NCBI GenBank assembly: GCA_020137815.1 | Contig: CM035351.1 | Location: 7,254,001 to 7,318,000 of the forward strand | DNA: 64,000 nt | Source: Hormiphora californensis | Taxonomy: Eukaryota; Animalia; Ctenophora | Reading direction: 5' to 3' | Shown: one piece after another, positions 32,418-36,248 of the stretch | How the letters are laid out: every line of letters starts with the position of its first letter | How positions within the stretch are numbered: the stretch's first letter is position 1 | The notes under the pieces: generated by a model | What the model saw: only the letters and a program-made list of their open reading frames with translations | What the model was told of the DNA's origin: nothing | Database searches by the model: none | Translations under genes and position numbers: made by a program

Positions 32418-32606
32418 GACCTGAATATTGTTTTTTTTTCTTGAGTTAGCCAAACCAATCTATTGTTTCAACTATACAGTAAGAGAGGAATAAAAACAGG
32501 AATGTGTATAGTAAAAGAGAAATAGAAACAGGAATGGAAACAATTTGGCAAGCTATAGCTGACAGCTGGTGGTAACAATAACCCTGGCTAGTAACTAACC
32601 GATCAC

Positions 32607-35600
32607 TTCTCGTGTTGTTGTTTTCGTGTGTGCGTCTCGGCTCTCCCTCCTCTGGGGGCCTTCTCGAATTTCACCACTTGTCTACCTCGATCTCCCGCCA
32701 TCCCCTGCTACTGTGAAGATACAGCAAAGAAAAGACCAACTACCTACCACCGATCTACATTCTCCAATCAGATAAGACCATTCATGTTATTGTGTTGTTC
32801 CTTATTCATTTCTAGTGTTATAGGCTAGGGGGTGTAGTAGTGCTGTTTTCGGTTTGGACATGTCATGGTGTTTGTTTAGTTTTTTATAGCAAGGTCACCT
32901 TTCTTCTATCTGGTTTGACCTTTCTTTTAGTTGTATGCGTCTTTAGTCATTTATCGGTCATCATTACTAGTCCAGGCCGGGGACTGGAGCTTAGCTTGAT
33001 TTGGTTTTGGTGTAATAGTCTAGTTGTTTTTACTCTTTTCCCCGTTATTACTTATTACTGCTACCGTGTGCGGCGGAAGGGGGCCCCCCCTGGACCGCCA
33101 TAGTTGCCGGTGTGGTGGAGGGCTGTGGCTTGGCGGGGTTGCTCCACTGTGTCTGTCTTGATCCTGACGGAGAGATCGGAGCTCTAGCTCGGAGTTCGTT
33201 TTTTTGATAGGAGTGAGCATTGTCATTCATTCCAAGAGGAAAGTGTTTTCGGTCCAGAATTCGGGCAATTGTCTTTGGCCGTCGATTGGCTTTCCGATGT
33301 GACCGGGATCATCTGAATTGGGCGACCGCAGGGGGCGCAGTGTCGTCTTTCTTGAATTTGGTCGGGTCATGTGATCTTCGCCGAATCGTTGAGTGTTCGG
33401 TGTTGCGAATCGGTCTAAGTGGTAGAGAATCACGTATCACGGCTACTAATGAGGGATGACGATGCTGATTGGTCATGAGATCTGTAGCTCTTTGATAAAT
33501 GTCCTCTTTCCTCGAATCACATTACCCTGTATTGGTACACATACCTCATTAGCGGCCGTGATGCGAGATTCCTCTGCCCATTGGCTCGGTTAGCGATCCC
33601 GGATAATCAACGATTCGGTGAAGATCGCATGACCTGACTGACTTTGGGAAACATGACGCTGTGTCTCTTGTGGTTGCCCAATTTGGATGGTCTTGGTCGC
33701 ATTGGAGGGCTGATCGATGGCCGGGGATGGTTGCTTGAGTTCTGGACCGAGAGTGTTTTTTTCTTGGAGTGAGTGACAATGTTCGTTCCTATCGGAAGGG
33801 TGAATTTTGAGCTGGAGCTCTGATTTTTCTGTCGGGATCGGGATGGACATGGTGGAGCGGCCCTGCCGGGTTGCAGCTCTCCGCCGCATCGGCGGCTGTG
33901 GTGGTCTGGGGGGGGGGGGGGCTTTTTTTTTGCCGCACACGGTAGTTGTTAGGTAACATGTTTCAGAGCACGTTCCTGCTGAGGAAAGGGTAAGGCCATG
34001 CACTCACTCCAGGACCTGGCAGAGTTTTCTGTGGGATGAGAGGGGGTGGTTCAGGGGCTCTGTTCCCCTAGTATAGGGTCGTTCTTACCCGGGGTCAGGG
34101 CTGTTTTCTGTTCTCCCTAATAAGGGAGAATTGAGTGGGGGTTCCTGGTTTTGGGGGAGGCAGCGAGGGGCTAGTTTCGGGATGGTTGGGGTTGGATGGG
34201 GTTGTTTGTCCTCTCCCACTCGCACAGGTCCTGTACGGGGTACACAATTCAGCCATACCATTCCAATCAGGTCGACCAAGGGTAAGAATCGAAAACCGAT
34301 AATAATCACAAATCTTAACCCCCCTTATTGCTAGGGAGTTCATTTGCAGGGCATGCTCCCGATAAGGAGCGGTAAGTTCACTCGCTCACACTACCACAAC
34401 TATCATTCTTCAGGTATCTGAATCTCGGTAATGCTCTTCCAAATTGCACAAGTCACCTCCCCATTTTTCAGGGCACCCTATTCCTTTCTCTTCTCCTTCT
34501 TCCTTTTTCTCTCCTTCCCCCTCTCTCCTTCTCTCTTTCTTGCCGCTGCTCCTTCTCTCTCTCTCTCTCTCTCTCTCTCTCTCTCTCTCTCTCTCTCTCT
34601 CTCTCTCTCTCTCTCTCTCTCTCTCTCTCTCTCTCTCTCTCTCTCTCTCTCTCTCTCTCTCTCTCTCTCTCTCTCTCTCTCTCTCTCTCTCTCTCTCTCT
34701 CTCTCTCTGGGAATTGGGATCCTATTAGTCTTGTATTTCATCTCTATCTGGTTCGAAACCATTTTCGGTGTTAATTGCTCTTCCTGGTCTCACATTTCTC
34801 TTCTCTTCCCATTCTTTCTCTATGTAGTTCCCCGGGAGATCTCCCTTATCCTTCTTTTGATAGGGTCCCAATTAGCGGGTCTGGTGTAGCTTATTTCATC
34901 CCCCTACCCTGTCCTGTCTTCCTGTGTCTATCCCTTCCTGTGTCTCTCGTCTCTCTCCCCTCTCTCTCTCTCCCGCTCCTTTATCTCGTATTTCTGATCA
35001 AATCAGTAGCCCCACTCTCTTTTCCCACATACCACATTATCACCTGGTTGGGCAATGGGCGACTGGCTATCGATTGGCTGGCTAGTGATTGGGCGAATCT
35101 GAATCTTCCAACCCATTCACTAGAACAGTATCTCATGTAAAATTTGGACCTAGCGGCATCACGCACTCACCCCACGCCATAGTATTAACCTTTGCCCTCA
35201 CGATCAATGTCACTCAATATCATATTCGCCCCTGTTTTTATCCCTGCATCAGTTCCGGGTTGTGGGACAATATAGACATAAGATTGTTTATAAATGTCTA
35301 ACAACTGGGAACTAGCACAACCTCTCCCCTCCCTTAGTTCCATCCCCTCCCATCCCCAACCCCCTACCATTCACCCTCCTACCGAGATCTCGGCTAGGCG
35401 GGGTACCTTTCCCTTTTTGCTACCCCCTCCAGTTCGTCAGTCTGTCTGAAACCTATCACAGGTGCCCTACGGCGCAGTGTAGAGACCGTGCCCGAAACCA
35501 CGACAATAACTTTGTTTGACAAAACTGCTCTGCATGTTATCGAGATTGTTAACATACACTGGGGTCAAACAAGGGTCAGCGTTGAGAGCTGTTACTTTCT

Positions 35601-35676
35601 AGTGTAACACCAACAGAGATGGTGTATTACCAAGAAAGGGGAATATGCCGCACAGAGGAAGCAAAAAAAAAAAAAA
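32607..35676 (+). mobile_element. 3.07-kb non-coding retro-insertion with poly(A) tail and 14-bp TSD
   Basis: AACTAACCGATCAC at 32593-32606 and 35677-35690; A-run from 35663. No RT/EN ORF. Contains a long hairpin and a (CT)n tract at ~34553-34708. Confidence 0.9.
33061..33945 (+). other. ~395-bp G.U-rich RNA hairpin (arms 33061-33454 and 33544-33945)
   Basis: The arms align without gaps over 33091-33340 vs 33908-33659. Every difference there is a G.U pair on the + strand. Confidence 0.92.
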
Positions 35677-36248
35677 AACTAACCGATCACAACCAGGCGT
35701 TCATTGAGCCAACTCAACACACACAAAGAGATAAGACGAAGGAAAATGAAACCTGAGACACACGTACCGCCAGCTCATATTTTGAGAGAGTATGATACTC
35801 AAAACAGAGAAAGAGCTAGCTCAAGTGTGAGTGTGTGGAGCATTCTCTAGTCGTGTCTAATCAACTTAGTCCCGGCTATATAAAACAGGTCACTACAATA
35901 TAAGACTACTGGCAAATGGCAACACATGACTTACGTCACACACCTGCTATATAGAGATGTGTAGTAGTGATGTAGGAAACAGGTGACTATTGTGATGTAG
36001 TAGGAAAGAGGAGCTATTTGGTGAATAGTAAACACAATGTAACAACAGAAATTAAACACACAGCTGGTACAACAATGTATATGTTCATACTTCACACAGG
36101 CGTGTCAGGCTTGGTGACGCAGTCACCCCTTACACTAGCCGCGCGAAGCACGGCTAAACGAAGCCTGCGAAGCAGGCTGAGTGTGTATTATAACATAATA
36201 GGGGATTTCATCACCAAGTGTCAGGCGCGACTCAAGTACAACATTGAA

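Follow-up and report, generated by a model that had tools for sequence, protein, structure and literature searches.

A retroposed non-coding unit with a nested MITE hairpin that carries a probable record of ADAR editing

The window analyzed here is a continuous stretch of DNA of 64,000 nucleotides, and all positions are counted from its first letter. We found that it contains a non-coding unit of 3.07 kb (32607-35676) that is bounded by a target-site duplication (TSD) and ends in a poly(A) tail. Next to it, on the minus strand, lies a single-ORF gene for a multi-pass membrane protein of 432 amino acids with about 8 hydrophobic segments (31119-32417), and 190 nt separate its ATG (32417) from the unit's opening base. 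An earlier note on this DNA, made from the sequence alone, had placed the insertion approximately 190 bp upstream of the start codon of an MFS gene. The distance holds but the MFS identity is unsupported, since a Pfam scan of the 432-amino-acid ORF and its two homologues returned no match. The other proposed neighbor, CIP2A, is supported by one exon (38195-38623) with an E-value of 1.2e-5, just below the Pfam cut-off. No effect of this insertion on the neighboring gene, 190 nt from its start codon, is demonstrated.

The TSD is a perfect 14-bp repeat on the plus strand, with the left copy (32593-32606) identical to the right copy (35677-35690). The 14-mer occurs exactly twice within the 64-kb window, its chance match is approximately 2.4e-9 per position and 1e-5 over 5 kb, and its length lies inside the range of non-LTR (TPRT) retroposons, approximately 7-20 bp. 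The poly(A) tail consists of 14 A's on the plus strand (35663-35676) that directly abut the right TSD, so that 16 A's stand in a row once two letters of the duplication are counted in, and the signals AATAAA and ATTAAA are absent throughout 32607-35676. The longest stop-free frames of the unit encode 155, 137, and 132 amino acids. The first and last of these overlap a perfect (CT)77.5 microsatellite (34554-34708, plus strand) inside the unit, and a Pfam scan of seven unit frames gave no match at the curated cut-off. Our data thus confirm the perfect TSD, the poly(A) tail without AATAAA, and the lack of coding capacity described in the earlier note, and the TSD, tail, and absence of an ORF support its proposal of retroposition in trans.

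We considered several known element types for this unit. An autonomous LINE was rejected because no frame exceeds 155 amino acids and none of the seven frames has a Pfam match to an ORF2 endonuclease or reverse transcriptase. A SINE with a tRNA, 7SL, or 5S RNA head was likewise rejected, as an Rfam scan of 32400-35900 down to an E-value of 1 yielded one match, far under the gathering score, and no known ribozyme. No partner LINE was found in the window. The one LINE within it (9699-11747) was rejected as a partner, as it does not match the unit and has a different, tandem-repeat tail. L1-type proteins require only poly(A).

We then used public DNA contigs from runs X1, X2, and X5 (samples S1 and S2), with depth taken relative to the flank, to judge copy number. 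The comparison covered 32600-34460 and 35540 onward of the unit; the run label "DNA?" is conjectural, and the window sequence may itself derive from S1. We found that 32600-34460 and 35553-35650 are both multi-copy, and the unit thus belongs, as one of its copies, to a non-autonomous retroposon family. The 5' part of the family (32607-33063, plus strand) has no strong fold and ends in a TA (33062-33063); at 32630-32722 the summed contig depth, which does not equal copy number, is 32-60 times that of the flank. The G-rich middle part (33945-34460, plus strand) has multi-copy depth in X1, X2, and X5. The 3' terminus (35553-35662, plus strand) is high-copy, as individual zero-difference contigs there reach 13 and 30 times the depth of the flank, and the loose contig end of another copy carries the same terminus followed by A's. 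Loose ends before 35575-35608 and the higher 3' depth are compatible with 5'-truncated copies or with subfamilies. The family would be approximately 2.2 kb long if the stretch between its two ends (34461-35539) belongs to it as well, as those ends suggest. Of the two origins offered earlier, a long non-autonomous family therefore stands and a one-off lncRNA retrocopy falls, given the multi-copy parts, the shared poly(A)-bearing terminus, and the absence of AATAAA and ATTAAA. The window copy departs from sister copies at 32745 and 34211 by changes other than A>G, and this copy or its source is thus not the consensus. A 25-nt motif of the 3' end had 0 matches in metagenome contigs and viral contigs. 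Run X13, possibly an RNA run, yielded 0 contigs for the unit, a result that carries no information on expression.

Within this copy, an internal foldback of 879 bp (33064-33942) has TA on both sides (33062-33063 and 33943-33944). It consists of a left arm (33064-33458), a loop or spacer of 81 nt (33459-33539), and a right arm (33540-33942), all on the plus strand; the arms are inverted, approximately 400 bp long, and without an ORF. In sister copies, which lack the foldback, 33061 connects to 33943 through a joint that shares 2 letters, at 10, 8, and 2.6 times flank depth in X2, X1, and X5, respectively. The foldback is therefore a MITE nested at a TA, duplicated by it, in this copy rather than a part of the family, which adds to the earlier description of a DNA-transposon-derived foldback. 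Its TA duplication and end motifs suggest that it is of the Tc1/mariner type. Its inner part occurs at hundreds of times flank depth, while the outer arms are rare. RNA of the plus strand is predicted to fold with -669 kcal/mol (z -39), compared with -393 kcal/mol for the minus strand. The hairpin is larger than the motif cited in the earlier note suggested. Alignment confirmed the homology to the MITE at the window start (1-662, its left end cut by the window and its right end followed by TA). This older relative served as an outgroup, and its own arms have no G:U bias (15 versus 18).

The arms of the nested MITE differ from each other in a one-sided manner. Across 398 aligned columns, there are 53 G/A and 52 T/C differences against 1 A/G and 0 C/T, so that 105 of 106 transitions yield G:U pairs. 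Alignments without a bonus for G:U pairs gave similar counts (51 + 53 versus 2 + 0, and 55 + 54 versus 2 + 1), and over the 200 columns at 33111-33310 every mismatch is G/A or T/C. Five other inverted repeats tallied in the window are symmetric, with a pooled count of 41 versus 45 (Fisher p 5e-17). Approximately 5 of the inferred changes lie in a homopolymer (33075-33095) and hinge on the alignment, and the G at 33060 was left out because it is outside the MITE and seems variable in the family.

An arm-to-arm comparison alone is blind to A>G versus C>T, which leaves room for C>T deamination by APOBEC or AID, methyl-CpG decay, or a RIP-like process as the source of the G:U pairs. At the changed columns, the outgroup MITE has A 42 times versus G 10 times, and T 52 times versus C 9 times (p 4e-13). 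Genomic contigs of X1, X2, and X5 show A at essentially full depth where the window has G at 33238, 33239, 33563, 33589, 33595, 33640, and 33685. Among changes from window to contig, G>A was the commonest kind in each run (36, 41, and 54 places), with T>C at 10, 7, and 13, and of the 16 G>A places displayed within the foldback, 15 appear on our list of inferred edits. The outgroup and the genome-wide homologues thus set the direction as A>G, and both arms carry these changes on the poly(A) strand (53 inferred changes in the left arm and 52 in the right). RIP and CpG decay are strand-symmetric, whereas the pattern here is 105 to 1; C>T deamination is largely refuted and retains next to no probability. 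The agreement between the changed strand and the poly(A) strand has, on its own, a 1-in-2 chance.

We found that 105 of the 228 adenosines in the stem (approximately 46%) are changed, and that the changes depend on neighboring bases. An adenosine after G is changed in 8 of 57 cases, against 97 of 171 for the other 5' neighbors combined (p 1.3e-8): U 27 of 39, C 32 of 58, and A 38 of 74. The share after C (0.55) is as high as that after A (0.51), and adenosines before U are the least changed (25 of 72, p 0.022). These 5' and 3' patterns agree with the neighbor preference of metazoan ADARs in PMC9989829, which also lists orthologues of ADAR1 and ADAR2 in the ctenophore studied. The sparing of adenosines after G is the ADAR signature, and this sequence pattern points to ADAR as the enzyme. 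An ADAR could in principle have deaminated DNA adenines directly, on an R-loop or an extruded cruciform, with one strand's changes inherited, and single-strand changes are also expected from this route after replication. PMC12925331 describes editing of DNA by ADARs in DNA:RNA hybrids on model substrates, although the activity cited there involves mutant enzymes or mismatched sites. An R-loop is not expected to respect the limits of a self-complementary stem, the changes sit on the strand that bears the poly(A) of a retroposed unit, and the 46% level and neighbor preferences fit RNA hyper-editing. We regard direct deamination of DNA as very unlikely.

The earlier note had also suspected editing in the flanking parts (32820-33060 and 34000-34250). 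This idea is unsupported: 34123-34266 is identical to a contig from S2, and family members differ as to the G at 32852. Nearer the 3' end, 35558-35609 is identical to other contigs, and the middle part lacks private editing where tested. We also rejected the reading of the family as a whole as an old, edited foldback, based on hairpin and G:U-share comparisons. In six part-versus-part comparisons allowing G:U, the local hairpins at 34079-34166 and 35251-35313 alone exceeded all 30 shuffles, the latter being a small hairpin in the C-rich 3' part of the unit (34709-35552, plus strand). The G:U shares in folds of three parts were near those of shuffled sequence (0.19/0.17, 0.15/0.15, and 0.07/0.09).

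The edited form is present in genomic DNA. Zero-difference contigs cover the left arm in X1 (33034-33376) and in X2 (33061-33394, with 1 gap) and the right arm in X1 (33689-33833 and 33804-33940), so that the left flank-MITE junction and the edited arms are all represented. Given that the runs carry a guessed label and S1 may be the sample that was assembled, edited cDNA mixed into the assembly, or another assembly or library artefact, could be suspected. The zero-difference contigs come from two runs at genomic depth, the same runs cover the intergenic flanks, and the unit is TSD-bounded, all of which makes an artefact highly improbable. In S1 the edited form thus exists as real DNA, at single-copy depth; none is seen in S2, and X5 has no G-bearing depth at 33128, 33169, 33238, or 33239. 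The shares of S2 words (0.42-0.46) come near the proportion of the query made up by the flanks (2617/5701) and were not used as evidence, because S2 also has family words and differs in the flanks.

Because the edited contigs are at single-copy depth, the editing looks like one event with no later amplification. The changes could instead have accumulated over several rounds of retrotransposition, or they could be G:U pairs selected in an edited subfamily. The left-arm contig in X1 has a depth of 318, closer to that of two haplotypes (359-422) than of one (156-256), which speaks for these readings. The remaining edited contigs have depths of 213 and 123 in X1 and 36.6 in X2, where the flank is at 23-60, the G-bearing form is absent from X5 at the four positions named above, and a single pass can reach approximately 50% (PMC12925331). 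Both alternatives thus have a very low probability, comparable to that of DNA deamination.

The insertion is probably recent, as had been proposed, given the perfect TSD, the edited copy in S1 that is not seen in S2, and an indirect sign of an empty allele. A flank contig of X2 starts, by its length, exactly at 35677, where a branch would lie if an empty allele existed alongside the filled one; the matching flank contigs start elsewhere, 7 letters later in X1 and 4 letters earlier in X5. The search for other copies was successful for the family, and no unedited copy of the family with the MITE was found among the contig pieces displayed. The edited contig of X1 extends without a break from 33034 over the junction and the first edit, with no unedited same-junction copy visible in that graph, a weak indication since few pieces were displayed and contigs drop variants. 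This missing source would suit a scenario in which a family copy inserted here, received the MITE later, and was then overwritten by its own ADAR-edited cDNA through RNA-templated gene conversion. Routes of this kind are under discussion in PMC10209271, and where tested the changes stay within the stem. Such in-place editing requires three rare successive events at a locus of young appearance, whose TSD is perfect, whose tail is uninterrupted, and whose edited copy is not seen in S2, and a source copy may be missing from one individual or hidden by contig collapse. We consider it unlikely, if less so than the other alternatives.

Our data indicate that an RNA intermediate was very probably hyper-edited by ADAR before a LINE reverse transcriptase wrote the copy into the germline at this site. 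The MITE, with long and near-perfect arms, entered a TA of a family copy, presumably at a separate source locus. Transcription of that source may have let the MITE fold into double-stranded RNA of approximately 400 bp, as the computed fold predicts, in which ADAR would have deaminated approximately 46% of the stem adenosines in both arms. An L1-like ORF2 protein from a putative partner could then have acted in trans, priming on the poly(A), reading inosine as G, and integrating the cDNA with the 14-bp TSD that the locus displays.

SVA elements and processed pseudogenes are long non-autonomous non-LTR retroposons that were moved in trans and have no ORF, a poly(A) tail, and a TSD. The unit also resembles R2-derived non-autonomous elements (PMC3414825) and TSIDER1 (PMC3820030) in lacking an ORF, in its poly(A) and TSD, and in having many copies, possibly with more 3' than 5' ends. 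Unlike all of these, it lacks, by Rfam, a head resembling tRNA or 7SL, contains a (CT)n tract, and carries an edited MITE, with a parent LINE that is putative.

Hyper-edited cases of avian leukosis virus and Rous-associated virus were reportedly seen in cell culture. An inverted repeat of the former (Hajjar and Linial 1995) and the U3 of the latter (Felder 1994) are presented as hyper-edited by ADAR in PMC12925331 and share with our locus A>G changes that affect nearly 50% of the adenosines where a reverse-transcribed RNA forms an inverted repeat. Those are exogenous retroviruses, whereas the insertion here is a natural, apparently heritable, non-coding non-LTR insertion of the host, with the duplex supplied by a nested MITE. 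Vertebrate LTR retrotransposons and endogenous retroviruses (ERVs) edited by APOBEC (PMC4866542 and PMC2873906) offer a second parallel, since a host deaminase hypermutates a retroelement intermediate that still integrates with a cluster of changes on one strand. APOBEC acts on cDNA and causes G>A changes in vertebrate LTR elements. Here the changes are A>G with ADAR neighbors and, where tested, keep to an RNA stem, and the non-LTR element that carries them belongs to a likely ctenophore. The text of PMC4866542 makes no mention of ADAR. ADAR hyper-editing in early-branching animals (PMC9989829 and PMC5850803) concerns young DNA transposons and other repeats with the same neighbor preference, but those edits are described in RNA and the present ones are in genomic DNA. 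High ADAR2 and hyper-editing are reported for coral gamete bundles in the same sources.

Human L1 RNA is reported as not edited (PMC5224506), and the heritable return of A-to-I edits to DNA is treated as debated (PMC10209271). A literature search that covered openly available papers without their supplements turned up no natural non-LTR insertion in a germline described as hyper-edited by ADAR, so that a printed report may still exist. If the favored reading is true, RNA edits were made heritable here. Retroposon RNA would then be a target of ADAR in an early-branching animal, either in its germline or in its early embryo, and heavy substitution by inosine would not prevent an RNA from being reverse-transcribed and integrated. 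The locus is a clean single-molecule case, with approximately 105 edits apparently made at once and the TSD, tail, strand, and sequence context readable. It also provides a cheap genome-only test for any animal assembly, namely a search for inverted repeats in which every mismatch is G:U on one and the same strand. As a tentative proposal that we hold at less than even confidence, ADAR editing together with LINE-driven retrotransposition may be a recurring route for RNA edits into ctenophore germline DNA, and probably also into that of other animals rich in long-armed MITEs. If so, the locus would be a first natural germline ADAR counterpart of APOBEC-edited ERVs, and G:U-skewed foldbacks in genome assemblies would constitute a searchable fossil record of germline ADAR activity.

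The retroposed unit (32607-35676) is bounded by an identical 14-mer at 32593-32606 and 35677-35690 (exact match), which has no third occurrence across the window and would be repeated by chance at approximately 1e-5 over 5 kb. Fourteen A's directly precede the right 14-mer, and a motif search of the unit found neither AATAAA nor ATTAAA. Target-primed reverse transcription of the L1 type typically leaves this combination of a poly(A) tail and a 14-bp target-site duplication (TSD). The longest stop-free frames in the unit are 155, 137, and 132 amino acids; the seven unit frames scanned against Pfam gave no match at cut-off, and the single Rfam match to the unit was at chance level. 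The perfect TSD, the poly(A) tail without AATAAA, and the absence of coding capacity claimed in an earlier note are thus borne out.

Outside evidence was drawn from contigs of the public runs X1 and X2 (sample S1), X5 and X6 (sample S2), and X13; S1 is possibly the source of the window, in which case X1 and X2 are not independent. Summed depth, which does not equal copy number, was 32 to 60 times flank depth (contig depth beside the unit) at 32630-32722 and was raised in every bin up to 34460. The 3' end was covered by single zero-difference contigs at 13 and 30 times flank depth, and a loose end from another copy has the same terminus followed by A's. Since contigs of X2, X1, and X5 join 33061 to 33943, sharing two letters that correspond to the TA dinucleotides bordering the foldback, sister copies exist that lack the 879-bp MITE and one TA. 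The unit is therefore a member of a multi-copy family with the MITE nested in it, and this family is approximately 2.2 kb long provided that 34461-35539 belongs to it, the comparison having reached only both sides of that middle. The inner MITE is present at hundreds of times flank depth and its outer arms are rare. The family also has internally deleted variants or subfamilies, since several contigs join across 63-310 bp within 34014-34325. Two small hairpins in the carrier (35251-35313 and 34079-34166) beat all shuffles and could be recognition or processing signals. The X2 flank contig, placed by its length, has its first base precisely at 35677, where the contigs should branch if the filled and the empty allele were both present; this is indirect, and other runs are mixed (the X1 flank contig starts at 35684 and an X5 contig approximately 4 letters before the TSD).

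The plus-strand RNA of the foldback (33064-33942) is predicted to form a single rod of approximately 400 bp (-669 kcal/mol, z -39), compared with -393 kcal/mol for the minus strand. When the left arm was compared with the reverse complement of the right over 398 ungapped columns, in an alignment scored with a G:U bonus, we counted 53 G/A, 52 T/C, 1 A/G, and 0 C/T mismatches and 10 transversions; unbiased alignments gave 51+53 versus 2+0 and 55+54 versus 2+1. As controls, five inverted repeats elsewhere in the window were tallied, and their mismatches were symmetric (pooled 41 versus 45; p 5e-17 for the comparison). Foldback or MITE-like elements used as unedited controls, because their arm mismatches are symmetric, lie at 2802-4102, 8924-9174, 30388-30735, and 36248-36317. 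The arms of the MITE were near-perfect before the change, since 33111-33310 holds only G/A or T/C mismatches.

G:U mismatches can originate from A>G or C>T. At G/A columns, the related MITE at the window start carries A in 42 cases and G in 10; at T/C columns it carries T in 52 and C in 9. These counts cover the 83 columns present in the four-arm alignment, with other bases or gaps making up the rest. In each of the three DNA runs, genomic contigs show A, at essentially full depth, at seven high-depth sites that are G in the window. G>A was the top difference class per run (36, 41, and 54 places, against 10, 7, and 13 for T>C), and among the 40 of 186 difference rows displayed, 15 of the 16 foldback G>A places fall within the approximately 105 inferred edits. 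By these comparisons, both arms have undergone A>G change on the plus (poly(A)) strand. The earlier note had suspected edited flanks as well; where checkable there is no private editing, as an S2 contig is identical over 34123-34266 and different copies of the family differ at 32852.

Overall, 105 of 228 stem adenosines (46%) were changed. By inferred original 5' neighbour the fractions were 27/39 for U, 32/58 for C, 38/74 for A, and 8/57 for G (p 1.3e-8), and by 3' neighbour G ranked highest (25/45) and U lowest (25/72; p 0.022). Metazoan ADARs favour 5' U/A and 3' G and disfavour 5' G and 3' U, the ctenophore studied has ADAR1 and ADAR2 orthologues, and DNA transposons are among the most edited repeats, according to the available text of PMC9989829. 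The unit departs slightly from that preference, with adenosines after C changed as often as those after A. High editing with 5'-G depletion is likewise described in coral gamete bundles (PMC5850803, in part).

The edited arms exist as DNA, and the edited form is rare. Zero-difference contigs in X1 cover 33034-33376 (depth 318), 33689-33833 (213), and 33804-33940 (123), with flanks at 156-422, and one in X2 covers 33061-33394 at 36.6, with flanks at 23-60. X5 has no G-bearing depth at 33128, 33169, 33238, and 33239, under a filter that removes some contigs, and the edited copy is likely absent from S2. Because the edited X1 contig is unbroken at the first edit, no unedited copy with the same junction is visible in X1; this missing source is the weakest element of the proposed mechanism and keeps alive the low-probability alternative that an edited cDNA rewrote the locus in place. 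Retroposition of an edited transcript best explains what was observed (TSD, tail, family, TA nesting, one-strand A>G with ADAR neighbours, and presence in DNA): a source copy of the family carrying an unedited MITE would have been transcribed, its RNA edited by ADAR, and the copy integrated in trans by an L1-like protein. The window LINE at 9699-11747 was rejected as partner, since its tail is a tandem repeat and it does not match the unit. This LINE fragment (9578-11747, minus strand) holds a reverse-transcriptase frame of 683 aa, and the repeat in its tail is of 8 bp.

The unit lies 190 nt from the start (32417) of the left gene, in agreement with the earlier note, which had named this gene MFS. 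That name is not supported: the gene (31119-32417, minus strand) encodes a 432-aa multi-pass membrane protein that matches no Pfam family, its only two homologues (36-40% identity, approximately 502 aa) also match no MFS family, and it is possibly lineage-specific. The promoter region of this gene holds a second structural variant, since an X2 contig skips 101 bp at 32437-32539, just upstream of the ATG. On the other side, a Pfam match just short of the cut-off gives one CIP2A_N exon at 38195-38623. A 12-kb satellite of 34-bp units (38597-50759; 356 copies, 93% matches) probably lies inside a CIP2A intron, since it begins where the exon-bearing frame ends. Elsewhere, a 75-bp minisatellite occupies 59775-61628 (approximately 25 copies, 94%), and the best named match of the window glucosidase is a protein of the ctenophore Bolinopsis microptera (58% identity), other named matches reaching at most 48% among 120 listed, which makes a ctenophore host likely.

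According to PMC5224506, ADAR1 restricts L1 but does not edit its RNA. The accessible portions of PMC5974252 and PMC4365171 describe no comparable case, and no report of a matching case was found in the largely open-access literature searched. In the text available, an avian retroviral inverted repeat is ADAR-hyperedited, with nearly 50% of A's converted to G (PMC12925331, a review), and the unit works the same way; vertebrate genomes retain ERVs edited by APOBEC (PMC4866542; PMC2873906), which offer a parallel in that a hypermutated copy integrated anyway. Unlike both, as described there, the unit is a non-LTR, non-coding element that occurs naturally in its host and whose RNA was edited through a captured MITE. 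A natural ADAR-edited non-LTR insertion is thus probably novel. At this one locus, the unit is a real and unusually clean deaminase-hypermutated, integrated retroelement copy, most likely the work of ADAR rather than APOBEC.
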